From an uncultured virus (IMG/VR IMGVR_UViG_2698536638_000003) (Duplodnaviria; Heunggongvirae; Uroviricota; Caudoviricetes): a DNA stretch of 64,000 bases. Both the position numbers and the translations under genes were made by a program. The stretch is taken from IMG/VR virus record IMGVR_UViG_2698536638_000003, positions 1-64,000 of that record; one strand, written 5' to 3'. Below, piece after piece: positions 1 through 53,700 of the stretch. The notes under the pieces are model-generated. The model ran no database searches, was not told where the DNA came from, and saw only the letters and a list, made by a program, of their open reading frames with translations. Each line of letters starts with the position of its first letter. The stretch's first letter is position 1.

Positions 1-1023
1 TCAAAGTGTGTCTGGAACCATCTGATCGATAGCCCGCTTCAATGACGCCAAACCATTGTGGGAATAGCGCTTCGTCATTGAGTCGGTCTTGTGACCCATC
101 AGATCCTGCGTGGTAAACGACGACACACCGGACTGTATCAGCCATGATGCGAAGGTATGTCGCAGGTCATGGATATGAAGCTTCGGCATGCCCGCCCGCT
201 TGCGGATGCCGTTCCAGCTCGCCTTGAAATCGAACTGTGCCTTGCCCTCCTTTCTCCCTTTGAAGAGGTAGCCGACCCGGTGTGCTTCAGGTGTGTTCGA
301 AAGTGTGTCTCGAACCTCCTGCCGGAGCGGAATTCGTCTAGAACTGCTGTTTTTCGTGCGCTCGCCGTCAAGTTGTATGAGGCCGTGCTCCAGGTCGATC
401 TCGTCCCAGTTCAACTTCATGAGCTCCTGGTGGCGCATGCCGGTCCAGACCGCCAGGGTGATGAACATCCGCTGGTGGGCTTCCGTGCAGGCAGCAAGGA
501 GCTTCTCATAGTGATGGAAGTGCAGATACACCTCGCGGCGATCAGCATCCGCGATGTCCTTCTTGTCCAGGCCCTTGAGGGGGTTCCGGTCAACTCCACA
601 GTCCCAGCGTCGAGCATGTGTCATCAAGGTGCTCAAGAAAGCCAGGTCGCGCCGAAGCTGGACCGTCTTTCCTGTTTTCATCTTGGTCTTGATGTAGGTC
701 TGGACGCGCTCTTCATCTAGTACCCGCAACGGAAAATCCCCGAGCACCTCGACGATGTTGGTGAGGCTCGTCGTGTAGTGGCGCCTGGTGGCTTTCGAGT
801 ACGGCCGGCGCCGAGGATGCTCGAAGAGCTTCTCCGTCGCTTTGACGACCAGAAGGTCGTTGTCCAGCAGAAGTGCCGCGTTTAGCTCTTGCTCGAGGCG
901 ATCTGCCTCCGCTTGAGCAGCCTTTGGACATTTGAGGCCAGTGGACCTTCTAATGACGTTGCCCCCGACGTTGAGGCGGGCTTGGTAGGTGCTTGATCTC
1001 TCTCGTATGTAAATGTCGGCCAT
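1..1023 (-). CDS. int: Tyrosine recombinase / phage integrase (340 aa from MADIYIRER)
   Basis: Catalytic motifs TGMR, K (RTKN), HDLRH, LMGH and RY; N-terminal arm-binding-like region. Confidence 0.95.
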   Translation of the reverse strand: MADIYIRERSSTYQARLNVGGNVIRRSTGLKCPKAAQAEADRLEQELNAALLLDNDLLVVKATEKLFEHPRRRPYSKATRRHYTTSLTNIVEVLGDFPLRVLDEERVQTYIKTKMKTGKTVQLRRDLAFLSTLMTHARRWDCGVDRNPLKGLDKKDIADADRREVYLHFHHYEKLLAACTEAHQRMFITLAVWTGMRHQELMKLNWDEIDLEHGLIQLDGERTKNSSSRRIPLRQEVRDTLSNTPEAHRVGYLFKGRKEGKAQFDFKASWNGIRKRAGMPKLHIHDLRHTFASWLIQSGVSSFTTQDLMGHKTDSMTKRYSHNGLASLKRAIDQMVPDTL

Positions 1024-2327: not shown

Positions 2328-3179
2328 CTAGTTGAGCAGCCTCTTGGTCCAGGCTTTCAGCTTGCCGAAGATGCCCGTTGTTGGCGCCGGGTGTTGCGCA
2401 GCCCACGCCTCGTCAAAGGCGTCGTTCTCGTCGTCGTAGAAGGTCGAATAGACCGGCTGTGGGAAAGCGTGCTGCGCCTCTTCGTGAGGCACCTCATCGA
2501 CGATGGTGTACCGGCAGGCGCGGCCCTTGCTCGAACCTTCCTGGGGGAAAGCAACCACGTCGGCCGGGTTGATCTTGAGCACGAGCACATGGCCTTCAGT
2601 GCCGACGTAGACCGGCAGATAGTCCCACGAGCAGAAGTGGAGACCCGCCGAGCAGGTTCTGAAGCGATCGGCGTCGCACTCTTTCCTCGGGAGGAAGATG
2701 GTCGAGCCGACATGGTTCAGCGTCTTGCGGTCGTGAAACGACAGGTAGTCGGGATCGACCTTCTTGTAGGCGAGGAAGTAGCCGTCAGGGGTGATCGGCA
2801 TGCCTGCCTTCTCCAGCCACTCGAAGAGATCGTTCTTGATCACGGGCTCGGGGTTGAGCTGGAGCCGCTTCAGGAAATTGATCCAGGGCGTGGCTGGCTG
2901 GCCCCGCTTCAGGAGGTCGATGATCCTGAGCGTCAGGTAGTTGTGGAGGGGCTCGTCGTTGTAGGTGAGCCCGTCGTAGCCGACACGGATCAGCTCGTCC
3001 TCGTAGAGCAGGTGCTTTCGCAGAGCTGCAGCCAGGTCGAACAGATCCTCGCCGAGGTCTCCGTTTTCACGGAGCCGGCGCTTGATAATGTCGAAGTTCG
3101 GATGAGAGGAGTCGATCGTCTTGAGATCTCCGCCGACGAAGGCGGAGATCGTGTTCCCGGAAATGACGTGCGGGATCAT
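2328..3179 (-). CDS. rIIB: rIIB-like protein
   Basis: DLFEWLE...PITPDGYFLAYKKV...CSAGLHFCSWDYL...KINPADVV...KGRACRY match the T4 rIIB family; follows rIIA. Confidence 0.88.
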   Translation of the reverse strand: MIPHVISGNTISAFVGGDLKTIDSSHPNFDIIKRRLRENGDLGEDLFDLAAALRKHLLYEDELIRVGYDGLTYNDEPLHNYLTLRIIDLLKRGQPATPWINFLKRLQLNPEPVIKNDLFEWLEKAGMPITPDGYFLAYKKVDPDYLSFHDRKTLNHVGSTIFLPRKECDADRFRTCSAGLHFCSWDYLPVYVGTEGHVLVLKINPADVVAFPQEGSSKGRACRYTIVDEVPHEEAQHAFPQPVYSTFYDDENDAFDEAWAAQHPAPTTGIFGKLKAWTKRLLN

Positions 3180-3181
3180 TG

Positions 3182-5179
3182 TTACCTCGCGATGAGCTTG
3201 AGATAATGGCTCAGGTGGTCGTCGTTGTCGGCGAGCACGCTGAGTAGTGGGTACTTGGCGACCAGCCCATTGAACTTGTCGCGGAAGTCCGTCTTGATGT
3301 CCGGCAGCATCTTGCCGGTCACCTGGACCCACAGCTGGGACAGGAGAACATCCTGGTAGCTGTTGGTCGGCATGTTTTTCGCCTTCGCGAGGAGATCACG
3401 GAGACGCTTCGGCAGCTGGTCGAGCCGATTGAGCAGAACCGCTGCCAGGCGCTGGTTGCGGAAACCGCTCACATCGCTCTTGATGACGTAGGCCTTGGCG
3501 TTGAAGCTCGACGCCGTGTCCTTCAGCAACTGGTCGAGGTGGACCCAGCCTGGCCGGTCTTTCGGCAGGCCACGCTGGTTCTTCATCAGAACGATGACCT
3601 CGGAGTTGTGGTCGAGGATGTCCATGTTCTTCAACCGCTTGACGTAGCGGTCCTGCACCTGGTCGAACTCGAGCACCTCGCCGAAGACTTCGTACTTGCT
3701 GGCGTCGGAGAAGATGTAGACGGCCTTCTCCGGCTCCGGGACGATGTTCCGATGGGCATCGAACCTGCGGATGTCCTGCTTCGTCAGGGCGACCCGAGGG
3801 CGTCTGTTTGCGCGGGGCAGCTTGAGGCGCTCGAAGGTGCGGAGGTCGAGGACGTTCTCGACGCCATAATAGGCGGCGATCGCCTCCTTGCTCTGGCCCT
3901 TCACCCACAGGATGCTGTCCTCTGCGTCGTTCTCCCAGCGGAACATCCGCATCCGGTCCTTGCCGAAGGTGCAGTCCTCGGCTTCCCAGATGATGGTCAG
4001 GAGCTTCAGCTCCTCGGGGGTGAGCGAGGGTGCCGTCTGATAGTAGCGGGAGCGGCCTACGGGCTGGCGTGGTGGGGCGAACTTGACGTCGGCCGCCCAG
4101 CTGTCGAGCACTGCGGCTCTGCCAGCGCTGAGATAGGAAAACGTGGTGCGCAGCGGGCGCTTACCGCGCCACACTGGTTCCTTGATCATGGCTTTCCCGA
4201 GCCGATGGCTCAGTTCCCGGTACTTGATACAGGCGTCGAGATAGTTGTCCGGCTCGTCGAGCGCCGCCTGGAGCTCTTTTGCGATGTGCCGGCGGATTTC
4301 CTGCCAGATCATGCGCAGGTTGTCCTTGGTGGGCTCGTCGTAGCCCAGCTGCTCACGCGAGGTCTGGACGCTGGCGGTGCCGATCGGAACGTCGATGATG
4401 ACCGGGATGCGCAGCACGTCCGTGTCGTCGATCTCTACCAGCTGGGTGATGTCAAGCGGGTAGAGGACGCAGCCCTGGCGGATGTGCGGGGTCTTGATGT
4501 GGACCGAGTTGACGATGCGGTAGTCCGTGCCGGCCATGAGCGTCGTCGGGGACGCAGGGGTCCACTGGTCGTTCAGGATGTTCGGCATCGGGTCGAAACC
4601 GATCATCACTCGCTCGATCGCAGTGCGGAAACGCTGGATGTCGCCCTGCTGGACAGGGAACTTGATCATCAGACCACGGCGCTCGTAGCTCTCTTCCTCG
4701 GCGGCGAGGCTGACGGTGGGCGAGCCGCCTTCGTCCAGGAAGCAGACATACTCACGCTTGGACGCACCATCGAAGCAGGTGATGACGTACTGCGTGGTGT
4801 AGGCGAACGGCGACTTCATGCCGAGGCCAAGCATGCCGACCTGGCTGTTGTCGCCACGTTTGTTGGAGCCGAACAGCGTGGTCGCCCGCTGCATGACGTC
4901 TTCGTGATCCATGCCGGGGCCGAAATCGCGGACCATGAAGTACGGGCTGAAGGTCGATGGCGCCATCAGCTGGAAGGGCACGTCGTGCTTCCCGACAGCG
5001 ATGTGGGCGTCATAGGCGTTGGTCGCCAGTTCGCGAACCGGCGCCTGGATCTTGTCGGAGTAGATGCCGTCGATCACCGCATGGAAGGCGAAGGCGTTCA
5101 TTTCGAAGCCGAACTTGCGGGCCTCGGTCAGGCCGCCCGAGTGGAAATCCTCGGAGCGGCGGTTGTTGAGTATCATCAT
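3182..5179 (-). CDS. rIIA: rIIA-like protein with N-terminal GHKL ATPase domain
   Basis: IYSDKIQAPVRELATNAYDAH, RDFGPGM and GMLGLGMKSPFAYT motifs; paired with rIIB. Confidence 0.9.
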   Translation of the reverse strand: MMILNNRRSEDFHSGGLTEARKFGFEMNAFAFHAVIDGIYSDKIQAPVRELATNAYDAHIAVGKHDVPFQLMAPSTFSPYFMVRDFGPGMDHEDVMQRATTLFGSNKRGDNSQVGMLGLGMKSPFAYTTQYVITCFDGASKREYVCFLDEGGSPTVSLAAEEESYERRGLMIKFPVQQGDIQRFRTAIERVMIGFDPMPNILNDQWTPASPTTLMAGTDYRIVNSVHIKTPHIRQGCVLYPLDITQLVEIDDTDVLRIPVIIDVPIGTASVQTSREQLGYDEPTKDNLRMIWQEIRRHIAKELQAALDEPDNYLDACIKYRELSHRLGKAMIKEPVWRGKRPLRTTFSYLSAGRAAVLDSWAADVKFAPPRQPVGRSRYYQTAPSLTPEELKLLTIIWEAEDCTFGKDRMRMFRWENDAEDSILWVKGQSKEAIAAYYGVENVLDLRTFERLKLPRANRRPRVALTKQDIRRFDAHRNIVPEPEKAVYIFSDASKYEVFGEVLEFDQVQDRYVKRLKNMDILDHNSEVIVLMKNQRGLPKDRPGWVHLDQLLKDTASSFNAKAYVIKSDVSGFRNQRLAAVLLNRLDQLPKRLRDLLAKAKNMPTNSYQDVLLSQLWVQVTGKMLPDIKTDFRDKFNGLVAKYPLLSVLADNDDHLSHYLKLIAR

Positions 5180-5766: not shown

Positions 5767-5970
5767 TCAGACTGGTTGTGCGTCTTCGACGTCTCGATCT
5801 CGGACAATGAGCGTGTAGTTTTCGAGATCGGTGATCTTGTCCGCGTTGACGAAGGCGTCTTCGGCGGCGTCAGCCGGCCGCTCTCCTTCGTAAACCTCGA
5901 CCACAAAATTATGGACGATGGTCTCTACGACCGTCACATTGAACTTGCGACACTCATCATTTTGTTCCAT
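5767..5970 (-). CDS. Hypothetical acidic protein
   Basis: ORF MEQNDECRKFNVTVVET... Confidence 0.5.
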   Translation of the reverse strand: MEQNDECRKFNVTVVETIVHNFVVEVYEGERPADAAEDAFVNADKITDLENYTLIVRDRDVEDAQPV

Positions 5971-12129: not shown

Positions 12130-12281
12130 GCGAGAGATTTCGCAGCCCGCTTCGCAGCCCTGGCGGCCTCCTTGGCGCCGGCCGCGGGGTATTCCTTCTT
12201 CCCGCCCTTGAGCAGGTTCTTGCCGATGTTCTTGTTCGTCACCGGCTTGCAGCGCTGGTAATTGTGGCGGATGCTCATCGC

Positions 12282-12865: not shown

Positions 12866-12904
12866 AGCTTGTTCTCCATCCGTTCAGGGTGTAGGAATTA
12901 ATTC

Positions 12905-13102
12905 ATGCGCGTCAGTCCACCCACGATCGAAGAGTTCGCTTTCCACGTTGAGTTGTGGAGCGCCGACGATTTGAGGGTGGATGACACGTTGGCCGTGGCG
13001 AAGAATATTCGCGTGGCTCGGGCGGCCTACGATGAGGCGCTTAAGGTGCGAGAGGGCCGCATCGTGAAGCTACGACACGGCGCCAGGGTCATACTGCCAT
13101 AG
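12905..13102 (+). CDS. Small hypothetical moron protein (65 aa)
   Basis: Antisense to its neighbours, with an AT-rich upstream segment. Confidence 0.55.
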   Translation: MRVSPPTIEEFAFHVELWSADDLRVDDTLAVAKNIRVARAAYDEALKVREGRIVKLRHGARVILP

Positions 13103-14665: not shown

Positions 14666-16746
14666 TCGAACCCCCATGCAGCGGCGATCGCTTTGGCCGC
14701 CTTAAGTTGTTGGTCGGTGAACACGCGCTGGCCGGCGTCTTTGCCGAACTGGTGCAGATACGACTCGAACTTGCCGTCATCCAGCGTGTGGAGGTTGCCA
14801 GCCTCCTTCGTGACGGCGACGGGCCAGGTGTCGGCCAGGCCGACAACCTTCTCGCTCTCGATGACGAGCACGTCGCCGTTCTTGATGTCGTCGATGCACT
14901 GGGTGAAGTCGTAGGCGTCACCGGTGCTGTCGAAGAAATGGATCTTGATGGTGTCGAACATTATGACAGAAACCCTTCGAAGTGGGTGGTGAACTCTTTC
15001 TCCAGCTCGATCGAGCTATCGCCGACGATCAGGTAGCCGTCGTCGTCATCATTCGGATCCCAAAGCACGAAGATGCCTGGGTAGGCCTTGGCGCGGGTGA
15101 CCAGTGCAGGTGATGCTTGGCGCTCGAACTCGGCGCGGGCATCGAGGCGGTAGCCGTTGTTGGTGATGACGTCGGTCATTCATGACCTCCTTGGCCTCGG
15201 AAAAAATCTCATCAGGAACATGAGCTCGTCGCGGGCGGCCTGGTCGTCACCGACCTCGGCCTTGGCGAGGAACTGCTCCACGCGGCCATAGATGTTGGCG
15301 CCGACGCGCTGACAGACGTCCTCGCGGGCTTTGCGGACTGGGTTGATCATGGCGCTGTGCAATCGTTGGCGATGACGGTGATGGTCTTGCCCGACTTGTC
15401 GAGCTTGACGCGGGAGAGCTCGACCATGTCGCCGGCCTGGTAGCCGCGTGGACGAGCGCTCTCGTGGATCTTCTCCCAGGCGATCTTCTTGCCTCCGACG
15501 ATCTCGCCGGTACGGTCGCCCATCATCCAACGGTCGGTGTAGGTAGGGATTTGAACTCGCATTGTGATGTCCTTGTGGGTGGACGGTGAGGCCCAGCCAT
15601 CCACGCCCCGGTGCAGATGCGACACCGGGCCAACAAGCGTTGCCGTTAAGTGGATGGCTGGGCTCCCCTGGAGGAGAGCATGTATGGGCACCTGAAACGG
15701 TGTCAGGGCAGCTTGTCGGCTACCCTGTTGAGGTGGTTGGCGAGGTCGCGGATGGTGTTGCGGTCGAGGGGCAGCACCACCTGGCCGCGGCCGATGGCCT
15801 TCTGGCTGGTCCAGTTCTCCAGCACGATGAAGTCGAGCACCGGCGTCACGTTGATGCCCGTCGCCTTGAAATGGCCGTTCCTGCCCAGGGCATAGAGCGG
15901 TTCCATGGGCTCGGGGCGCTTTGGGAAGGGGATGACGACATTCATGCCGCGTTCCTCGTCACGTCGAGCGTGTGGTCATGGATCTCGCCGGGGATCAGCT
16001 CGGCGTTGAGCTGCTTGAAGCGGTTGCCGTCGACATCAGCCGAGCGCCAGATGAGGAACCTGGCGAACTGGCTCGGCCGGCAGATGATCGTCTGCTGGGT
16101 GCGGACGGCGTGATAGGCCTGGGTGCATGTCAGGCCGAAGGCCTTCTGCGCTGCCCGGGCGTTGGCCGCGTGGTTCTTGTCGACGTCCGACAGGCTGAAG
16201 CGGACTCTGTCGTTGGACATAGTCATGAGCGGGGCTCCTTGGTGGGGACAAAGGCTGACGGCGCCGGGAATAGCTCCGGGCCCGGGCCGATGACGATGGC
16301 GACCCCGCCGAAGCCGATCTTGGACCAGCATGGGCGGAGGTCGTTGTGGTGGAGGGGTGGCGACACGTCGTACATGTCGCGGCGCCAGTTCTTCATGGCG
16401 TCACCGGCACGTTCAGGCCGTACTTGCCGGCGAGGGTGTCGAACGCAGCGTTCATCTCGCGCGGAAAGTCGTTGCTATCGTGGGCCGACTGCAGATCCCG
16501 GAACTCTTGCTTCGCCAGGTCCATGAACAGGCCACGCCGCTGGAAATCATCAAGGTTGAAGACGCCAACCGAGAAGTTATCCATTTCGGGGATGTACTCG
16601 TCGTCGTCGATGAGCTGGCCGATCGCGCACTTACAGTTCTTGGGGCCGCGATACATGCACTGCATGTGGTGATCGCTGTAGGAGCGCTGCCAGCCCTGGG
16701 CGGCGAGGCCCAGGTAGACGCGGTCAAATTGCTCCTGGGTGATCAT
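14662..16746 (-). CDS. Cluster of small hypothetical genes (14662-14961, 14961-15179, 15180-15350, 15347-15562, 15703-15945, 15942-16226, 16223-16396, 16393-16746)
   Basis: Coupled ORFs; the last has a CMYR...CKCAIG...LQSAHD motif common in phage proteins. Confidence 0.55.
15591..15663 (-). ncRNA. Intergenic structured element (14-bp stem, multibranch cap)
   Basis: GCCCAGCCATCCAC / GTGGATGGCTGGGC perfect inverted repeat enclosing a CCCGGTG/CACCGGG hairpin. Confidence 0.5.
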
Positions 16747-17309
16747 GCGTAAAAGTCCTGTCTGTGATGCTTCTTGATGAGGAGGGGGTCGATGATGATC
16801 GGTGTGTCAGACCGGTAATCACGCATGACGTTGCCGGCGTGGATGTCGTGGACGAGCCGGTAATCGACGAGCTGCTCGACAGCCTTGCGGTAGCGAGCGC
16901 TGGGCTTGCCCTCGGAGTGGGTGGTTGTGCCGGAGATCTTATTAAACGTGGCGGTGATGGTCGCCGACGTTTTGGTCCGCTCGGATCTGGGCGATTTTTT
17001 ATATCGCCTCATGACGCACCAGAAATTCGTTCGGGCGCTGTTCCACTCCAAGGCGTAGACCTTGGGGAAGAACTTGGAGCTGATCTCCTTGTCGATCAGC
17101 TGCTGCGCGAAATACGGAAAGCCATCGTAGTAGCCGACGCGTGCGCTGTAGTGCCGGCCGATCTTGATGACGACATCAGGAGCGTCGGGATGCACGAAGG
17201 CCCTGGAGTAGGCCCCACGGCCGATCTGGACGTATCCCTGAACGCGTAGGGTGGCTGCACTGAGGCAGGCGTGGCGGCGGGCATGGTTGATCTGGGCACG
17301 GATGTGCAT
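16743..17309 (-). CDS. T7 gp0.7-like Ser/Thr protein kinase
   Basis: IGRGAYSRAFVHP (Gly loop), VVIKIG (catalytic Lys), PKVY, HDIHAGNVM (catalytic loop) and IIIDP. Confidence 0.8.
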   Translation of the reverse strand: MHIRAQINHARRHACLSAATLRVQGYVQIGRGAYSRAFVHPDAPDVVIKIGRHYSARVGYYDGFPYFAQQLIDKEISSKFFPKVYALEWNSARTNFWCVMRRYKKSPRSERTKTSATITATFNKISGTTTHSEGKPSARYRKAVEQLVDYRLVHDIHAGNVMRDYRSDTPIIIDPLLIKKHHRQDFYA

Positions 17310-17340
17310 CGTCGCTCTCCAGGGTGGGGTGTGATGGGAG

Positions 17341-17426
17341 AAACTAGCCGTGCAGGGGTCGAACCTGCCTGTCCCGCCCTCGCTCATTCGTTGGCCACGG
17401 TTGTCACCACGATCGACGGCTAGTTT
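17341..17426 (-). ncRNA. tRNA-like element (acceptor-like stem plus canonical T-arm; no recognisable D or anticodon arm)
   Basis: Minus strand: AAACTAGCCGT ... GCAGG-TTCGACC-CCTGC-ACGGCTAGTTT. Confidence 0.5.
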
Positions 17427-17745
17427 TGTGCTGTTTCACGCGCAGCGGTGCGTATGGTTTGGGTCGCTAAGACCGCCCTAGTTAAGGTCCAAGGGGCAGG
17501 ACCCGCATTCAGCGACTGAGAGTGATCACGAGGCCTTACACGTACTGGCGGCATCGATCCCCTCTGGGGGGAGCCCGTACTTCCTTTATCGGCGTGCGAT
17601 CTGAGAGATTTGGTTCAATTCCGATGCGCCGTAGGTGGCTCGGATGAGCGGTGGTTGATGAGGGCGCTATAGGTAGTCCTTGGCGGCGCGGCTCGCGTTA
17701 AATCTTCATGATTGCCTCCTATGTGGGGTCGGTCGGACCTGGGGA

Positions 17746-18060
17746 TCACACCAGCTGTCGACTGATGTGCGCGACCATCTTCTCGGGTCGCGTGGTGGTG
17801 AGGTTGGTGAACGCGCACCAGTGGTAGGGCCCGACCTTGAGGTAGGTCGCGGCGATGTCGTCGGTCAGGCGTTCGCACAGCCTGAAGCCGCCCGGGCAGT
17901 AGATCGGGGGCAGCATCTCGAGGAATTCGTCGTAGATCGTCTGGTCGATCTGCCAGAACTTGCCCAGCATCCACTCCGCTGGCTTGCCCTCTCGCGTCCA
18001 GCGATTGAGGTTCACGTAGTGGAGGGTGCGGTCGCCCTGGGCGCTAGGAAGCTGGAACAT
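17746..18060 (-). CDS. DUF1419-like protein
   Basis: GKFWQIDQTIYDEFLEMLPP...FRLCERLTDDI resembles rhizobial DUF1419 (from recall). Confidence 0.6.
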   Translation of the reverse strand: MFQLPSAQGDRTLHYVNLNRWTREGKPAEWMLGKFWQIDQTIYDEFLEMLPPIYCPGGFRLCERLTDDIAATYLKVGPYHWCAFTNLTTTRPEKMVAHISRQLV

Positions 18061-18256
18061 TTGGCTTGTCCCATGTGAGGTCGAAGACCGAGACGAAATA
18101 CTCAGACCCAATGCCGTCATCGGCCCACTTCACGTAGACCCGATTGCGGCCGGTCTTTTCCCAGCCTGTGACAGTGGCTTTCTCGCCGCGGAAGGAGGTG
18201 ACCTCGTCACCGACTTTGACCGGGCGGCCATCGGGGTGGAATAGGTGGCGGTTCAT
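18044..18256 (-). CDS. Small beta-barrel-like hypothetical protein
   Basis: PVKVGDEVTSFRGEKATVTGW...; coupled ORF. Confidence 0.55.
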   Translation of the reverse strand: MNRHLFHPDGRPVKVGDEVTSFRGEKATVTGWEKTGRNRVYVKWADDGIGSEYFVSVFDLTWDKPNVPAS

Positions 18257-18675
18257 GCTGCGGCGTCCTTCTTGATCCAGCGGTCGAACGTGTTCTGAGC
18301 GGCCTCGTCGGTCATGTAGCCGTCCAAGGTTCGGATGCCGGCCATGAGTGGCGCGATGCACCAATCGCAGTCTTCCTCGAGCACGAAGAACTCGAAGTCC
18401 TGCATGTTGGCGAGCTGGGTCGGGGTGACCTTGAACGAGCGGCGCCGGTATTCGTGCATGACGGCCTTGCCGTAGTCCTGGGCCTGCTCGGGGTCCTTGT
18501 GCAGGCGGAACTTGAGGTATTCTTCGTGCGTCAGGGCACGGGCGTCGATCACGAAGCCGCCATGGCCTGAGCAGGAGAAGTAGAAGGCTCCGGCCCGGTT
18601 GGTGCGGGATGAATTGGTGCCGCCTGTGCCCCAGAGGGCCTCGGCGATCGAGCGAGCTTGGGAATGGGTCAGCAT
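18253..18675 (-). CDS. Hypothetical phage protein (DUF7007-like)
   Basis: SCSGHGGF and EEDCDW motifs. Confidence 0.55.
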   Translation of the reverse strand: MLTHSQARSIAEALWGTGGTNSSRTNRAGAFYFSCSGHGGFVIDARALTHEEYLKFRLHKDPEQAQDYGKAVMHEYRRRSFKVTPTQLANMQDFEFFVLEEDCDWCIAPLMAGIRTLDGYMTDEAAQNTFDRWIKKDAAA

Positions 18676-18873
18676 GGACGGCGCCTCCCGATGACACGCC
18701 ACCCGGAGGGGACGTCCTTGGGCGAGCCGGTGAAATCGAGCAGGGAGCCCGTCCTGTGGGTCTTGCAGCGCCTCGTCGCGACGATGCGGTAGAGTGGTTG
18801 GGACATGAGCGCACGCGCCTCTCTCCCGCTGTGAGCGGGTTGCTGTTGTTGTTGCTGTTGGTGGGTTTGGGCT

Positions 18874-19317
18874 TTAGGTGGAGACGGCGGTGGCGCGCTT
18901 CAGGACTTCGGCCTTGATGTGCGGCTTGAGCGCGTCCAGGTCGTCTTCCTCGATCTCTTTGGCGAGGAGCATCTGGAGCGCCTCGGCGATCTCGTCCTCT
19001 TCATCGGTCGAGAAGGCCGATGGGTTGCGCGGGTCGAGCCAGGGTGTGGACGGCAGATCGTTGTACTTGAACTTGCGTTCCCTGATCACCTTATAGTGCA
19101 GCGGCTCGATGCACCGTGGATCGTCGCAGACTACATGGTCGCGCCTGATCTGGTAGTCGGGGTGGTGGATCAGGTCTAGCTTGACGCGGGCCGGGTTGCC
19201 GATACGATCGAGGTGTGGTCGACCACCACGCATCTGGCCTTGCCAGACGAGGTGATCTCCTTCACGCTTGGTGAGCCGGTCGATGCGCTCGACCAGTGGT
19301 GCGCTTGGACGTGCCAT
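18874..19317 (-). CDS. Degenerate HNH endonuclease-like protein
   Basis: LVWQG ... HVVCDDPRCIEPLHY resembles the 'CWxW...HxCxNxxCvNPxHL' pattern with the catalytic Asn positions altered. Confidence 0.5.
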   Translation of the reverse strand: MARPSAPLVERIDRLTKREGDHLVWQGQMRGGRPHLDRIGNPARVKLDLIHHPDYQIRRDHVVCDDPRCIEPLHYKVIRERKFKYNDLPSTPWLDPRNPSAFSTDEEDEIAEALQMLLAKEIEEDDLDALKPHIKAEVLKRATAVST

Positions 19318-19332
19318 AGGGTGCTCCCGGCA

Positions 19333-19527
19333 TTCCAACACATCAAAGAAGTCCCGTTTCGTTTTCTATAATCAATTATTGTACTATGGGTACAATAATT
19401 CCTTCCAAGGACTGAAATGAAACTCGTTTGATGTGTTGGAACCTTTTCCCCTCTTGGCAAGGGGAAGGAAAGAAAAAAGAGAATTCTTATTAAAAGAGCC
19501 CGAAAAGCCCTTTAGTTAAAAGGGCTT
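19333..19527. promoter_or_regulatory. AT-rich nested inverted-repeat region (origin, promoter/operator or structured RNA)
   Basis: 15-bp IR 19333-19347/19427-19441; 11-bp IR 19374-19384/19390-19400; TATAAT at 19367; further hairpins at about 19446-19466 and 19505-19527. Confidence 0.6.
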
Positions 19528-19553
19528 ATCGGAGCTTGTTAAGGTAGTTTTCG

Positions 19554-19706
19554 TCAGTGATGGTTGTCGATTGCTTCGAGAACCCTGCCGGTTGATGGCC
19601 TCGACCGAGCCATTTCGAGGAACCTTACGGCCTCCAGCCGGTAGAGCTCTCTGGCAACCTCGGCCTGTTCGGCCTTCGGCGATCGATAATAGGGGTGTTG
19701 CATCAT
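19554..19706 (-). CDS. Small hypothetical protein (50 aa)
   Basis: GGAGG Shine-Dalgarno upstream of MMQHPYYRSPKAEQ... Confidence 0.45.
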   Translation of the reverse strand: MMQHPYYRSPKAEQAEVARELYRLEAVRFLEMARSRPSTGRVLEAIDNHH

Positions 19707-19796
19707 GGTCGTGTCCTCCGACAACTGGTTGCAAAATGCATCTGGTCAGCCCCGCGACCGCGAGGCCTTGAAACTTTTCGGGTCGCTGATTTGGTC

Positions 19797-19898
19797 CCCG
19801 CCAGCGCCACCCCCACAACCACCTAACGCCCTCTGCAACGGAAAGTTGCAGCTACTGACGCAACAGGTACATATGGTTGTGGACGTGGCGCTGGCGGG
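19797..19898 (-). ncRNA. Intergenic structured element (14+9-bp stem, multibranch cap)
   Basis: CCCGCCAGCGCCAC/GTGGCGCTGGCGGG and CCACAACCA/TGGTTGTGG stems enclosing a CTGCAAC/GTTGCAG hairpin. Confidence 0.55.
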
Positions 19899-19999
19899 TA
19901 GGTGGTCGTCGTCCCTCCAACGTGTTGATCCGTCGCTGGCATTGCGCGCTCTCCCGAGCTTCCGGCACGTTCCGCTCCTCCACACGACCGTGGAGCGGC

Positions 20000-20640
20000 C
20001 TAATACTTCTGGTAGCAGATGATCTCGCGCCACCCCTTGGCGATGGCGCCGTCCGCTGCGCGCCACGCGGCGACACAGTCAGGGCCGGCCGACACCGTCT
20101 CGCCGTCGACCTCCAGCACATAGAGGTGCTGGCCTGGGCCTTCGGCTGGATGGGGCGAGAGCCAGCTCACGAAAGCGGCGAGCGCGCTGGCGGCGATTGT
20201 GACCTTGATCATGCGAGTTCCCCCTCGAATATGATTTTGAGATCGGCGAGCTCGAACCCTTGCGATCGAGCGAGCTTTTCGGCTTCCTTTTCACAGTGAA
20301 GGGCCGAGCCCTTCACCCGCGCCAGCACCTGGCCCATGAGGCGATCCATGATCACGAACACGGTCTCCACCCCACGCTGATCCTGCGGCGAGTACAGCCG
20401 GCGGGCGTTGCGCTTGATGGGGGCCTGGTGCTGGCGCGACGGCCGAGCCGAGACGCGATCGAGAGCGTCTCGTTCGGGACTGGCGCAGCTCAAGCGCTCT
20501 TTCGAGAGCTTGTTCCATACGCGGTGCTCGACCTCGGCCATGGAATGCGACTGGCTAAAGCCGTCCTCGCGCTCCACGACGGTGGCTCTGGCGAAGACGC
20601 GGCGCATTTTCGGCTGGGAAAGATCGGGCAGGATTTTCAT
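20000..20640 (-). CDS. Two hypothetical genes (20000-20212, with a hydrophobic N-terminus; 20209-20640)
   Basis: Coupled ORFs. Confidence 0.5.
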
Positions 20641-21558: not shown

Positions 21559-21797
21559 TTGTCGAGAGGCCATGGCTCCGCCATGCCCCTCCGAGGAGGG
21601 GTCGCCTTGGGGGCTTCCGCCCCCCACCGGCCTAACCGGCCGATAACCAAAGATAACCCACCCAACCGCAGCAACAAGGGAAGGAGTACACGCTTTTTCC
21701 TTGATTTCCATAGCGTAGCGGCGGGAATGGAGCCACATATACTAAATAAAAATTTTGGAAAAACGAACTAATAGTACTCCGTTACTGCGGATAAACG

Positions 21798-21826
21798 AAA
21801 AAGGGCGCCCCGAAGAGCGCCCTTTT
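21798..21826. terminator. Intrinsic terminator downstream of the primase operon
   Basis: AAAAAGGGCGC-CCCGAAGA-GCGCCCTTTT. Confidence 0.8.
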
Positions 21827-21902
21827 CATCTGCGTCTCTTGACCCAATCCCTAGTCCCAACCACGGAGGGGGTCAAACGCGATACTATAGGAAGAGTGAG
21901 TT

Positions 21903-22184: not shown

Positions 22185-24623
22185 TTATGATTTCGACTGC
22201 CCCGCAATCGTGACGTAGTTGTAGACGATGTCCACACCCCCGTTCCGGGTCTCGCGAAGCTGTTCGAACCTGAAGCTTTCGACCAGCTCCTTCATCAATG
22301 AGTGAAATTTCATCCGTTGCACACGCGCGACACCCCCCGCCATTGTGCAGAAACTCCAGTACTCGTCGAAAAGGAGATCTCCCGTAGTGCGGGTCTTGGA
22401 AGTGCCCTCGTGCTCGCGCTTCCCCACTTTGAGACGAGGGCTCTGTGACAAAAAATATCGCACCGAGTTGTTCTGGTTGGCCATGTCATCGATCACCACG
22501 CGGTGGCTCGAGGGCAGGGTGTAGTCCTTGTTCACCTTCAGCCGCGAGAGCGCGCCGAGCGCCCAGGCGACGATCTGCTCGCGCTCGGCCGCCAGAATGA
22601 TCTGGTCGATGTCGATCACCTTCTTCTCGTCGGAGATCCGCCGCGGAAATTCGATGAACAGCCAACGACGGTTGAAGCCGTCCGAGGTGTCCTTCGTCTT
22701 GGGCGTGTGGTTGGAGGCGAACCACTGGGCCGCCTTCGGCCGGAACCTGAAGATCGGGGCATTCTTGTTCTGCGCCTCGATCTCCTGGCCTTCGATCACC
22801 TGCTTGAAGACGTCGCCTGCGATGTCGCGCTTCTCCGAGATCTCCCCGGCGAAGTTGACGAGCTTGTCGGCCATCTGTGCCGGCATGAATTTGTCGCCCC
22901 AGTCAGTCGGCGGGACCGCAGAGTGGCACCCGTCCGGCATCAGCCCCTTGAGGATCTCCAAAATCCTCGATTTTCCGCTATGCGCCTGGCCAATCAGGCA
23001 AAAAGCCCGCTGGTAGCGAGGCGCAACCCCCATGAGCGTTACCGCAAGAGCCTCCTGCAGCGCCATCAATTTGTCTCCGTAATCGGCGTCTTCACCCCAA
23101 CAATCGTCCAACATCTGCAGGAAAAGCGGGCAACGGCTGTCTTCCTGGTAGCGATAGGGCAACACATAGGTGCAACCCTGCTCAGGGGAATGCTTCCGCA
23201 GCTCCATGTTCTCGGTCAGGAAGCCGTTGGCGAAGTTCACGCCGGTCAGGGCGACCGTCTGGAGGTGCTCAGAGGCCAGGCCCGACATCAGCTTCACGAT
23301 CTGGCTGATGTCCGAGTAGCGCTTGCAAACCGGCAGCGTGCCGTATTCCTGGCTGATGTGCTTGATGAAGTCGTTCTGGTCGACCGTCTGCCAGGAGGCG
23401 CCCTTCCACTGCCAGAAGTGACCCTGGTGGAACTTCAGCTTGCCGAACTCCTCCAGGTCCTTCAGCACAGCGCGCGCGACCTCCGAGTGGTCGGTGCCCG
23501 TGATGTCGCCGGCACGGAGCTTCATGAGCTCCTTGCGCAGAGTAGCGACCGAGTAGGAGCCCTTGGACTGCGACACGATGAACTTCAGGATGCGCTCTTC
23601 GTCGAGCGCGCTGATCTCGATGTTGCGGGCCAGGCGATCGAGCGCCACTTCCACGGCGCGCGTCCAGCCAGCGGTGTCGGGCGAGACGTGCCGCTCGAAC
23701 TCGCCGACCAGATGGGACACGATCTTCTCGGGCTCCCACTGCTCGTTCTCCTCGGTGATGACAAGGCCGAGCTTTTCCTTGTCCTCGTCGGTGAGGCCGT
23801 CGTCCCAGCCGGTCGGGAGCGCCTTGCGCTTCTCGCCGGTGACGTCGCGCATGAGGAAGTCGACGACCTTGGTCTGTGCCTTCTCGACGGACATCTCGTC
23901 TCCGGCCACCTTCTCGGTGTAGCCCTCGACCCAGGCCTTCATCTCGCCCATGGCCTCGATCAGCGTGCGCTCACCTCGGGTGACGGCCCTCGCGAGGAGG
24001 CCGGCATTGTAGACCAAAGCGTTGTCGCGCGCACCCGCCGGCACGAAAGACGTGATTTTGGTGTTACCGCTGGTCGAAAGCTCGAAACCTTCGGCCTTCA
24101 GAGCCTCACGCAGGAGCGTTTCGACGTTCTTCGGGAGCGCCGGGAGCGCACCCATGACGTCGACCAGGTCGCAATTTGCCGAGTATGGCTTGCCCGTATC
24201 GGGGTGGATCGACGGCGGAAGCACGATCTGGGTGCCCTTGGACAGGCATTCCAGGAGCATTTCGCCCTTCGAGTCCTTCACACGGAAGGTGCGCTCGCCT
24301 TCGAAGCGGAAAGCGAACACGGCGCCCTTGCGACCGACACGCTTCCACGGGCTGCGGGGCAGGAGCTGCTCGATGATGCGCAGGACACGCGGGTCCTCGC
24401 TGTCGACGTCGATCGCGACGATGCCAGAGGCCGCGCCCATCGGCAGACCGATGTTGCCGTCTGCCTTCTGGTGCAGCCACTCGCGCTGTTCGCGCTCGGT
24501 GGGCATGCGATCGGCGAATACCTGCCACGCATCGATCCACGGGCGTTTGAAACCGACGCGCAGCGGGATCGCCGGCTTGCCGAGTGCCCAATATTTTGGG
24601 GCTTCTGAAGCGAAAATGCTCAT
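22185..24623 (-). CDS. Bifunctional primase-polymerase fused to a D5/P4-type SF3 helicase
   Basis: N-terminal Prim-Pol motifs (NIGL, AIDVD, VLPPSIHP); Walker A GQAHSGKS; FASNH and DGFNRRW. Confidence 0.9.
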   Translation of the reverse strand: MSIFASEAPKYWALGKPAIPLRVGFKRPWIDAWQVFADRMPTEREQREWLHQKADGNIGLPMGAASGIVAIDVDSEDPRVLRIIEQLLPRSPWKRVGRKGAVFAFRFEGERTFRVKDSKGEMLLECLSKGTQIVLPPSIHPDTGKPYSANCDLVDVMGALPALPKNVETLLREALKAEGFELSTSGNTKITSFVPAGARDNALVYNAGLLARAVTRGERTLIEAMGEMKAWVEGYTEKVAGDEMSVEKAQTKVVDFLMRDVTGEKRKALPTGWDDGLTDEDKEKLGLVITEENEQWEPEKIVSHLVGEFERHVSPDTAGWTRAVEVALDRLARNIEISALDEERILKFIVSQSKGSYSVATLRKELMKLRAGDITGTDHSEVARAVLKDLEEFGKLKFHQGHFWQWKGASWQTVDQNDFIKHISQEYGTLPVCKRYSDISQIVKLMSGLASEHLQTVALTGVNFANGFLTENMELRKHSPEQGCTYVLPYRYQEDSRCPLFLQMLDDCWGEDADYGDKLMALQEALAVTLMGVAPRYQRAFCLIGQAHSGKSRILEILKGLMPDGCHSAVPPTDWGDKFMPAQMADKLVNFAGEISEKRDIAGDVFKQVIEGQEIEAQNKNAPIFRFRPKAAQWFASNHTPKTKDTSDGFNRRWLFIEFPRRISDEKKVIDIDQIILAAEREQIVAWALGALSRLKVNKDYTLPSSHRVVIDDMANQNNSVRYFLSQSPRLKVGKREHEGTSKTRTTGDLLFDEYWSFCTMAGGVARVQRMKFHSLMKELVESFRFEQLRETRNGGVDIVYNYVTIAGQSKS

Positions 24624-50723: not shown

Positions 50724-53700
50724 TGAAGAAATTTGCAGGCAGCGGCTTCGGTGGTGGCGGGAGCAATGACCCCGACAGCTATTTCAGCGATGATATCATC
50801 GAAGCCGTTCTTGCGATTTCGGAAGGCCCTATCAAGGGCCTGAAGGGCAACAGCTCCAAGAACTTCTACATCGGCGAGACGCCGCTGCTCAACGCCAACG
50901 AGAAGACCAACTTCTCGAACTTTGAACTCGACGTGAACAAGGGCTCGGCGCAGGGCGAGCTCATCGTCTTGTCCCTGGGCGGCCAGGCGATCAGCACGAC
51001 GGTCAGCAGCAGCCTTGCTCAGTTCATCCCGGTGGTTCGTCAGGGTTCGCAAGTCGACATCGACTGGCTGGAGCTGCGCGTCATCGTCAACGCGCTCTAC
51101 CACAGCAAGGATGATGGCACGTCGGCTAAAAGTCTGGATCTCAGGATCCAGATCAAGCCATCCACCAGCTTGGACTGGACACTCCCGGTGCTCTATTCCG
51201 ACCTGGGGACGACGACACAGGCATACGAAAACAGCATCAAGGTCGTCCACCGCGAGGACATCGTGTCGGCCATGACCACTGGTCGCACGCAGGTGGTTTA
51301 CAACCAGTCGACCCAGCCAAACCCCACCTCGGACGAGCGTAGCTTGCCGGCCGCCTACGGTCACCGCGTGTGGTGGATCGATGCCGCGAACGGTGAATTC
51401 AACCCTCGGTTCTACTCGAACGAAGCCTTCTTCCTGCCTGACGGCCTGTCGCTGGCCGGGACGGTTGGCCAAGAGGTCGCCACCTTCGACGACGTGAACT
51501 ACATCGCGCTCATCGACCCCAATCGGTCGGACATCAAGCGCAGCATCTATTTTTGGACGTCAGGCACGCCCTCCAGCGCGCGTGTAGGCGATCTCTGGTA
51601 CGATCCGACGTCCAGCCGCCTGTTGTGGTTCAACGGCGCTGCCTGGGTCAACACGCTGCCTGCGGAGGGCGCCTACGATCCCACCGCCGGCGCGAAGGTT
51701 GTTTCCCAGAACGGCATCCTTCATATCCACGAAAAGATCTCGTCGAACGCGGTCAAGGAAGTGCGCGTCAAGGTCGACAGGATCGGTGTCCCTTACGACA
51801 TCCGCATCACCAAGCTGACGCCGGACTCTGAAGACAGTGGCGATGACCGCACCGACGTCTCCTGGGAGAGCTTCCAGGAGATCAAGGCCGAGCCGCTGCT
51901 GTTCCCCAACCTGGCCACCATCCGGCTGAAGGGCCGCGCCAGCGATCAGTTCTCCAGCCTGCCCACGCTCCAGGGCGTCTACGAGGGCCGTGAGATCAAG
52001 GTCCCATCGAACTACAATGTGGCCGAGCGAACCTACGAAGGCGTTTGGGACGGAACCTGGAAGGTCGCCTATAACAACAACCCGGCCTTCGTCGGCTACG
52101 ACCTGATCGAGAACGACCGCTACGGCATGAGCTCGACGTACCCGGTCACGCTGGACCCGTTTGACGTCTACGAGGCCGGACAGTGGTGCGACCTCCGGCT
52201 CCCCAATGGCAAACCGCAATTCACGTTCAACCAGCTCATCAAGGACCCTCAGTCCCCGCGCGAGCTGGCCACCTATGTGTTCGGCACCTTCGGCGGCCGG
52301 TTCTTCGACGACGGCAACGGCTACGCTCGGCTGCGGATCGACAACGGCCAGGCGCCGGCTGTCCATCTGTTCGCCGCGGAAAACATCAAAGGCTCCTTCA
52401 AATATTCCTACACGGAGATCGAGAGCCGGATCAACGATTACACCGTCTCCTTCAAGAACCCGGCGCTCTTCTACGTCGAAGACCGGCGTCGGGTTTACGA
52501 TCAGCCGTCGATCGACGCCTATGGCCGCGCGCCGGATGATTTCGTCGCCGTGGGCTGCAACAACGCCGACGAGGCGGTCTACCGCGCCACGGTCAAACTG
52601 TTGTCGGACCAAACCGAGGTCGAGACCGTCACGTTCGAGACGGCGCGCGAGGGACTGTACCTCGAGCCCTACGACATCATCCTCATCGCCGACGACACGA
52701 TGGACGAGGTCATCTCGGGCCGCATCAGCAGCACCGATGGCGAGTACACCATCTTCCTGCGCGACAGCGTGTTCCTGGAGGATGGGTTCGACCACGAGAT
52801 CGTCATCAACCTGAACCAGTTCGAGATCGCCACGCTGGCGATCGACGTGGTGTCGGTGGGTCGGGCNCCACGAGATCGTCATCAACCTGAACCAGTTCGA
52901 GATCGCCACGCTGGCGATCGACGTGGTGTCGGTGGGTCGGGCTACCAAGGTTCTGAAGCTGGTTGATCCCATGCCTTCGGGTATCCCGGCTCAGGCTGTG
53001 TTCTCGATCGGGCGGGGCGCCAAGCCTTACCGGGTGCTCGCTATTGGCGAAGGTGGCGAAGGCGACAGCGGCGACGACGAGAGCGTCACTATCACCGCGA
53101 TCGAAGTCAACCGGACGAAGTACGCTGTCGCGGCCGAGTCTCCTGGTTCGGTCGTCATCGACATCCCGGAATTCCCCACCGATCTGTCGGCCGTCACCAA
53201 TGCGCGCATCACGCCGTTCACCGAAGTCCGCAACGGTCGCCCGGTGCAGAACCTGCGCGTCGAGTGGGACGCACACCCCAACAAGTTCGTGCGTAGCTAC
53301 TCGATCAGCTCGCGCTTCGCCGACGACCAGTGGCAGTTCAACGGCGAGGTGAAGAACCCGCGCTTCGAACTCTATGATGTCAAGCAGGGCCGCTACCTCT
53401 TCTCGATCCAAGCCCTGGCGCTGACCGGGCAGAAGTCTGTCGTCGGCTATGCCGACATCGATCTGAGCGGCGAGGTCCGCACGGTGGCCCCCATCAAGAA
53501 CCTCGTTCTTACCAACCAGTCGGGCCTCAACGGCGCAATCCACCTCTTCGACGACGTCCATGCAGATCTGCAGTGGGAAGCTGGCGACAGCGATCCGGCG
53601 CTCTCCTCCTACCGCGTCCAGATCTTCGACGACGGCGAGGTGCTCCTGCGTACGACGTTCGTAGGCGTGCCGGCGTTCTCCTACACGACGTCGATGATCC

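Follow-up and report, generated by a model that had tools for sequence, protein, structure and literature searches.

Structured intergenic elements in the leftward operon of a temperate Mesorhizobium-type siphophage

Do the long inverted repeats that lie between genes of the uncultured Caudoviricetes virus IMGVR_UViG_2698536638_000003 act as RNA, and do they belong to a single system? The DNA analyzed here, called the window, is the first 64 kb (64,000 nucleotides) of this 81-kb IMG/VR provirus record. A preliminary description of the window had singled out four intergenic elements, which we term E1 (15591–15663), E2 (17341–17426), E3 (19333–19441), and E4 (19797–19898), and had presented them as a series of Y-shaped RNAs around a gene for a kinase resembling gp0.7 of phage T7. 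Structured RNAs between early genes are textbook material from T7 and are almost unstudied in temperate phages of Alphaproteobacteria. On the basis of the comparisons described below, which establish the existence of the elements, their strand, their conservation, and their covariation, we favor the reading, at a probability of roughly 0.55, that E1–E4 are four unrelated cis-acting sense-strand RNA structures that punctuate one long polycistronic message. All features given below with coordinates and a defined strand lie on the minus strand.

Results

Four inverted repeats within one operon

Between about 25 kb and 2.3 kb of the window the genes are encoded by the minus strand, so the elements sit within one long leftward operon. 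This single operon covers roughly 23 kb and runs from a prim-pol/D5-type primase-helicase gene (22185–24623) to the rIIA and rIIB genes. The four inverted repeats had been located correctly, and each is closed by a perfect stem: 14 bp in E1 (15591–15604/15650–15663), 11 bp in E2 (17341–17351/17416–17426), 15 bp in E3 (19333–19347/19427–19441), and 14 bp in E4 (19797–19810/19885–19898). When perfect repeats with arms of at least 11 nt and a gap of 3–120 nt were counted, the window contained 12, compared with a mean of 2.9 in 30 Markov-shuffled windows (about four times the chance level), and 6 of the 12 fall within 15591–20438. All four elements are located between minus-strand genes, as had been described, and we agree that they show no obvious similarity, nothing beyond 7-mers being shared among them. 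Each is present as a single copy in the window and target-site duplications are lacking, which was the outcome of a test for dispersed repeats or miniature inverted-repeat transposable elements.

The minus-strand folds were scored against 200 shuffled sequences. The values were −51.0 kcal/mol with a z-score of −5.2 for E1, −44.5 kcal/mol and −5.9 for E3, and −72.3 kcal/mol and −8.7 for E4; those for E2 are taken up with the assessment of the model. The multiloop-capped Y shape attributed to all of the elements applies to E1 and to the predicted fold of E2, but E3 and E4 take unbranched, rod-like minimum-energy folds, which have internal loops and contain 45 and 40 pairs, respectively. The idea of one series or system was not supported by the analysis; the four elements are of different kinds and have no common sequence. 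A comparison with Rfam 15, suggested earlier as a check, gave no match at the gathering score anywhere in the window, the best sub-threshold matches all being far below gathering. Other gaps of the operon also fold beyond their shuffles (5851–5970, z = −4.6; 12142–12261, z = −3.8; 12889–13008, z = −3.7). Because these other gaps are strongly structured as well, the four elements are a selection from a more general structured-gap habit of this operon.

E1, a conserved three-way-junction RNA

The relatives available for comparison were the IMG/VR contigs L009 (the same contig as L006), L011, and L012, along with prophage pieces from Mesorhizobium or Alphaproteobacteria genomes (L018–L020, L023, G104, G177, G569, and G029). 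E1 is a conserved structured RNA in which the base pairs are maintained by compensatory change. Its core (15591–15663) is composed of the 14-bp closing stem, a UUAA junction, hairpin A, and hairpin B. For 10 distinct copies (11 including a near-duplicate) from 9 genomes or records, aligned as A11, 95.0% of the cells are paired and 9 of the 28 pairs exhibit two-sided changes, versus a mean of 3.0 after shuffling; the covariation score is 0.204, versus 0.106 for the shuffled alignments, and neither value was reached in any of 500 shuffles. As a control, the pairing partners were slid by 1–3 columns, which left at most 42% of the cells paired, and an earlier count using 8 sequences agrees with the 10-copy result. 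Relative to the window, the closing stem has acquired five compensatory changes in G104 and four in G569, with three further compensatory changes in hairpin B of G104. Hairpin A, the UUAA junction, and the loop of hairpin B are invariant, the last being carried by a covarying stem. Two G.U pairs, which are part of the invariance of hairpin A, and one U.G pair are found in all 10 copies, and the opposite strand would have C.A mismatches in their place. Of 7 copies folded, 6 are more stable as the sense strand. The invariant G.U and U.G pairs are in keeping with E1 being a sense-strand RNA.

Upstream of the core is a single-stranded lead-in (15664–15702) that consists of UUCAGGUGC followed by a CUCC-rich stretch resembling an anti-Shine-Dalgarno sequence (GCUCUCCUCC), and both parts are invariant columns of alignment A5. 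In the minimum-energy folds of the L009 and L011 copies, the CUCC-rich stretch is base-paired to the next gene's ribosome-binding site. The gene upstream of E1 is a g4 homologue in most loci and an unrelated ORF in L009; the gene downstream varies, with three extra genes being present there in the window. Neither a promoter nor a terminator of its own was found for E1. Each relative locus contains E1 once. One Mesorhizobium metagenome-assembled genome carries three copies on its contigs L018, L019, and L020, each beside g4/g5 homologues and two of them nearly identical. These copies probably represent several related prophages or prophage remnants. Among the eight genome-contig matches to the E1 pattern, four (L016, L017, L021, and L022) were judged by eye to be unrelated and were dropped, as was L046, a partial match to one arm only.

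E4 and E3, long hairpins on either side of g14

E4 (19797–19898) is a 40-pair rod upstream of g14 that is built from 14 bp, a mismatch, 9 bp, internal loops, and an apical UGCAAC..GUUGCA hairpin. Of the 6 genomes examined, 5 retain the repeat (the window, L009, L011, L012, and L050); it is absent from L019, where an opposite-strand gene occupies the interval. Its core sequence GCC(A/U)GCGCCAC pairs with GUGGCGC(U/A)GGC, an A-U to U-A swap, and the window copy has undergone a matched 6-nt expansion of both arms. The pair table understates the pairing, the E4 alignment having been partly misregistered by MAFFT. All four copies folded on both strands are more stable as the sense strand, with a margin of 13 kcal/mol in two cases. 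Two further features were noted around this element. Upstream of E4, a non-coding stretch of about 100 nt (19899–19999) is conserved in L009 and L012 and contains a hairpin at about 19972–19998. At 19710–19760, the palindrome UUGCAUUUUGCAACC directly precedes the g14 ribosome-binding site; it is kept in L009 and L019, altered in L012, and not recognizable in L011.

E3 (19333–19441) is an AT-rich 45-pair hairpin with the apex UUGUAC-N5-GUACAA, and it ends 16 nt ahead of the g13 start codon. The rest of this AT-rich module (19442–19553) includes a terminator-like hairpin after g14 (19500–19532), a TATAWKAAG-type box, and a pyrimidine/purine hairpin. The g14–g13 gap has a GC content of 0.37–0.43 in 5 of 5 syntenic relatives, compared with about 62% for the genome, and all five share the same layout, in which the long hairpin measures approximately 105–130 nt and has its base 10–20 nt before the g13 start. 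The sequence of the outer arms differs in every lineage while complementarity is retained. The long-range repeat was detected in the 5 syntenic relatives and in L050 (13 nt perfect); for L051 no repeat of at least 9 nt was reported, with 7–8 nt pairing by eye, and in L052 the arms are imperfect (12/16 by eye), so that the overall pairing tally is 6/8. The apex keeps GUAC-N5-GUAC, followed by AAUAWU. A consensus scan of the minus strand found neither a sigma-70 promoter nor a terminator in the E3 module, and the promoter idea depends solely on the conserved TATAWKAAG-type box seen by eye. The adjacent gene g13 (18874–19317) codes for a 147-residue protein with a Cys/His pattern and no match in Pfam or PHROG; we take the pattern to be reminiscent of HNH/AP2-type DNA-binding domains.

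The preliminary description had named covariation and folding of both strands as checks. Covariation is clear for E1, and pairing is kept with changed stems in E3 and E4, but E2 was found only in this phage by an exact 18-mer scan of viral contigs. Folding of both strands supported structures on the transcribed strand for E1 (6/7) and E4 (4/4) and was ambiguous for E3 (3/5). Given its lack of a consistent strand bias, E3 may have a DNA-level role; in the window its two strands fold with equal stability. Extended to all of the elements, such a role would have them act as protein-bound palindromes (operators), cruciforms, or module-recombination junctions, with E3 the strongest candidate given its perfect 6-5-6 apical palindrome and the recurrence of GTAC-N5-GTAC in relatives. 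E1, E2, and E4 do sit where gene content differs among relatives, and the symmetric expansion of the E4 arms is what template switching would give. We nevertheless regard action at the DNA level as quite improbable. The outer arms of E3 vary between close relatives yet remain complementary, a behavior that fits base pairing better than protein recognition, and E1 and E4 favor the sense strand by way of G.U pairs. The DNA-level reading is also opposed by the lack of target-site duplications, further copies, and iterons, the last of which led us to reject E3 as a replication origin. The sequence comparisons point instead to E1, E3, and E4 being conserved RNA-type structures.

A structured leader and the E2 slot

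The gap between g9 and the kinase gene is 436 nt long, conserved, and non-coding, and it holds a leader region of approximately 400 nt that ends at E2. The structured leader (17427–17725) was recognized at 11 loci and has no Rfam match; a search with the core pattern added three viral and two metagenome contigs to the set, and BLAST added G104. Features were counted by script for 10 loci and by eye for L038. Two of the four metagenome matches to the leader pattern (L030 and L031) were dropped as unrelated by eye, and a family-level BLAST search for further copies yielded 1 hit among 400 genomes, which was already known.

The leader starts with an AGGAG-type ribosome-binding site and an ORF of 2–5 codons in 9 of 10 loci (and in L038 by eye), corresponding in the window to 17715–17720 and to the mini-ORF MKI* at 17698–17709; in L033 the ORF has 34 codons. 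A GYGCC...GGCRC helix, represented in the window by AUAGCGCC..GGCGC (from 17662–17670), is found in 10 of 10 loci with one compensatory change (L009). The invariant core, UCGCUGAn(n)GCGGGUC-loop-GACCUWAA, lies at 17482–17515, and its small hairpin contains two compensatory changes in G104 (by eye). Hairpin hp4 (about 17430–17446 in the window) has a CGNGAR-type loop in 9 of 10 loci on at least 8 different stems, with 1.7 such hairpins per region versus 0.37 in shuffled sequences. A further hairpin, hp3, was rejected as indistinguishable from chance, its stem reaching 4 bp or more in 8 of 9 loci. The MAFFT-based consensus fold of the 3′ domain contained invariant pairs only. The leader is present once per relative locus. 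Three phage records without g16 carry it (0/3 match g16), so the motif travels independently of the neighboring genes. Together with E1, the leader appears from these alignments to be a good candidate for a new RNA motif.

At the position of E2, just before the next ribosome-binding site, the four syntenic relatives L009, L011, L012, and L019 as well as L026 possess a canonical intrinsic terminator, so that the leader ends in a GC hairpin and U-run in 5 of the 10 scripted loci. In the window this slot is occupied by E2 (17341–17426), a window-specific branched hairpin with an 11-bp closing stem that is followed by UUUCUCCC. Branched and followed by this sequence, E2 does not resemble an intrinsic terminator, and neither the consensus scan nor the terminator rule called one in it. 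No exact 18-mer match to E2 was obtained in the viral contigs.

The leader, E1, or both could be new and independent regulatory RNAs, with the leader acting as a protein- or ligand-responsive attenuator or as a processive-antitermination element and E1 as a processed, trans-acting anti-Shine-Dalgarno small RNA or a protein-binding operator. Such functions would suit the invariant unpaired nucleotides that adjoin covarying helices in both RNAs, their wider spread than the neighboring genes (the leader in records devoid of g16 and E1 between variable genes), the absence of a matching Rfam family, and the placement of a terminator before the ribosome-binding site in half of the scripted leader loci, as in a riboswitch or attenuator. 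An alternative antiterminator pairing was looked for, however, and was not supported in comparison to shuffles. In addition, classical leader-peptide attenuation would call for a longer mini-ORF than this one and for one nearer to the terminator, which is more than 250 nt away; neither a ligand nor a binding protein emerged as a candidate, and E1 is without its own promoter or terminator. We consider this interpretation unlikely.

The kinase gene and its supposed link to the elements

The gene for the gp0.7-like protein kinase (16743–17309; 188 residues) matches PHROG 15752, the gp0.7-type kinase family, with an E value of 5.1e-11; its product has no Pfam match and is 71% identical to the L006/L009 homologue. 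E2 ends 31 nt ahead of the kinase start codon (17309), and the earlier placement of an element directly upstream of this gene is thus accurate. Next after the leader, the window, L009, and L019 have the kinase gene and L012 has a kinase paralogue, but six loci (L011, L025, L027, L032, L033, and L038) have a non-kinase gene. L012 has tandem kinase-like genes after its leader (17536–17724 and 17972–18514; 30% and 55% identity to the window kinase by tblastn). In L025 (923–1339, minus strand) and L038, the gene after the leader starts like the NADAR/YbiA family, a tentative assignment made from a motif. The kinase is absent from L011, yet E1, E3, E4, and the leader are all kept there; for this reason the structures do not appear, from the gene contents compared, to be tied to the kinase, and the proposed kinase control is not supported.

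The preliminary description had envisioned that RNase III excises stable small structured RNAs, such as decoys, anti-defense RNAs, or tRNA mimics, and that the kinase stimulates RNase III. The kinase family match is real, and the T7 kinase is reported to raise RNase III activity (PMC4858673). A 2026 paper describes broad anti-defense phosphorylation by the T7 kinase (PMC13645617), and with so broad a role a kinase gene is no specific pointer to RNase III. The invariant loops and junction of E1 beside its covarying stems suggest recognition of a folded RNA, which excision would accommodate. The tRNA-mimic idea has a lead in E2, where an acceptor-like stem of 7 bp adjoins a hairpin matching the T-loop pattern; the acceptor and T arm are the only parts that the Rfam tRNA-Sec model aligns, with 13.4 bits (E = 2.9). 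That score is far below the gathering value of 47, folding with the T arm costs 3.3 kcal/mol relative to the minimum-energy structure and has a pair probability of 0.004, and ARAGORN detected no tRNA genes, so that the tRNA models do not recognize E2 as a cloverleaf and its tRNA likeness is a weak lead. E2 was also not found in the relatives searched, the kinase gene is not fixed beside the leader, and the kinase-free L011 retains the other structures. We regard the excision of small RNAs under kinase stimulation as very improbable. The phage encodes no RNase III of its own.

The phage and other structured regions

The record derives from a temperate Mesorhizobium-type siphophage. A tyrosine integrase gene (PF00589, window 55–525) is located at the left end of the window, and the gene content includes siphovirus-type structural genes, rIIA/rIIB, ligase, and ribonucleotide reductase. 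The rIIA- and rIIB-like genes (2328–5179) form the far end of the leftward operon in this integrase-bearing temperate phage. The DNA has no blastn match among GenBank phages or PLSDB plasmids, and locus searches based on the kinase (genome and metagenome contigs) or on g13 (viral contigs) returned nothing. A single N occurs at 52867, within the tail-gene region.

Two additional structured regions were observed. The gap at 21739–21902 is AT-rich (GC 0.46) and strongly structured (21763–21882, z = −5.0), and in the syntenic gap of relatives the palindrome TTGCTCAATCGAGCAA is present twice, approximately 65 nt apart (L006 761–844, L011 13276–13357, and L012 13071–13153), which looks like a candidate operator pair. 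Inside g16 (20209–20640, minus strand) is an 18-nt inverted repeat (20318–20335/20421–20438) that is 94% complementary with arms 85 nt apart. It is found at the same place in L006/L009, L011, and L012, with an A-T to G-C change of both arms in L006 (by eye), and may be a fifth RNA structure.

Discussion

We propose that E1–E4 act locally on the message in which they are embedded, and the biochemical steps that we infer (cleavage, termination, and translation control) would differ among them. E4 and E3 lie on either side of the tiny gene g14, each with a potential duplex of 40–45 bp that is almost uninterrupted; most likely they serve as substrates of the host RNase III, as exonuclease barriers, or as both. 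Cutting of E3 and E4 by RNase III is plausible as a model, and with cutting or blocking there, g14 and g13 would have their stability and translation set independently of their neighbors. E1 can be viewed as an autonomous module of about 125 nt (CUCC-rich single strand, 14-bp stem, and three-way junction) at a variable-gene junction, where it most likely sets mRNA stability or translation locally, perhaps by sequestering the next ribosome-binding site. E2 is positioned in the slot of the intrinsic terminator that ends the leader in relatives, and the leader plus terminator most likely constitute an attenuator that would gate read-through into the block of genes from the kinase to E1.

Several observations weigh against this model. 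The sequence sets are small and their members are related. The E2 fold is weak (−38.5 kcal/mol, z = −2.3, equaled by 2 of 200 shuffles), and in a separate gap scan its z-score was −1.3. The strand bias of E3 is mixed, with the sense strand favored in 3 of 5 cases, and template switching at the DNA level can keep quasi-palindromes perfect without selection on RNA. Pairing of the leader helix CUUG:CAAG into the 5′ arm of the terminator was rejected as unsupported, since in most loci 74–100% of the shuffle trials reach the observed run. E1 is closed by just 14 bp, and a lower stem formed by its flanks was rejected because cognate flank duplexes (−10.4 kcal/mol) are no better than non-cognate ones (−9.2 kcal/mol, SD 3.9). 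A gene start close downstream is missing for 3 of 10 E1 copies (by eye), which weakens the idea of ribosome-binding-site sequestration. Finally, the dimensions of E3 and E4 depart from those of the T7 hairpins, as described below.

Two clearly delimited RNA motifs that Rfam does not contain come from this locus: E1, with its strong covariation, and the mini-ORF leader, which occurs in phages that otherwise share few genes. It also yields two hairpins, E3 and E4, with conserved pairing and unconserved sequence. A more far-reaching proposal, which we advance only tentatively, is that the leader represents a new class of cis-acting switch, working by protein- or ligand-controlled attenuation or antitermination and gating accessory early genes in diverse alphaproteobacterial phages, and that E1 is a stable anti-Shine-Dalgarno small RNA released from the operon or a protein-binding operator, each with a specific partner. 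A leader that works as a switch would reveal how these phages time accessory early genes, e.g., the kinase or the NADAR-like gene. If all of the elements are plain processing or stability signals, the result is useful but ordinary annotation.

Comparison with known systems

A T7-type RNase III site is a single intercistronic hairpin of approximately 20–25 bp (about two helical turns), usually with an internal loop. For comparison, we folded the intercistronic gaps of a fetched T7 record, which itself is without RNase III site annotation; we take these gaps to be the sites R0.3, R0.5, R1, R1.1, and R1.3. Three single-hairpin gaps gave −24 to −26 kcal/mol, with 23–25 pairs in two of them, and the 0.4/0.5 and 0.7/1 gaps gave −17 and −20 kcal/mol. 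The two phages are alike in having sense-strand gap hairpins within a polycistronic early operon that contains a gp0.7-type kinase gene and in locating hairpins just upstream of ribosome-binding sites, and all four elements share with T7 sites an intercistronic position on the transcribed strand, the strand preference of E3 being ambiguous. None of E1–E4 is a single hairpin of 20–25 bp, however: E3 (45 pairs, −44 kcal/mol) and E4 (40 pairs, −72 kcal/mol) have roughly double the length and two to three times the stability, the branch points of E1 and E2 come 14 and 11 bp into the stem, and no motif is common to the four. Because E3 and E4 in particular are so much longer and more stable than the T7 hairpins, we conclude that E1–E4 are not T7-type sites and that the likeness is limited to general intercistronic sense-strand structures.

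Intercistronic stabilizer hairpins and the REP, ERIC, and RIME elements are imperfect palindromes of considerable length that are transcribed as part of intergenic regions and can act as barriers to exonucleases. E1–E4 are likewise long, intergenic, transcribed palindromes, but they are single-copy in the phage and occur at fixed syntenic positions rather than being dispersed. The DicF small RNA, which is processed from the dicBF operon of the Qin prophage (10.1101/2023.04.14.536235; PMC10448788), offers a precedent for a non-coding RNA among small genes within a polycistronic prophage operon. It differs in having no sequence or Rfam similarity to the elements studied here, the DicF model reaching 12 bits (E = 6.1) on the opposite strand.

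Leader attenuators end in an intrinsic terminator, and the lambda nut sites with tL1/tR1 and the HK022 put sites lie ahead of early terminators. The leader of this phage differs from these in opening with a strong ribosome-binding site and a mini-ORF of 2–5 codons, no sequence resembling boxA/boxB or put was recognized in it, and in the window E2 replaces the terminator. It resembles them in being a conserved structured RNA of a few hundred nucleotides inside an early operon and, at 5 of the 10 scripted loci, in leading to a terminator and then to the next ribosome-binding site.

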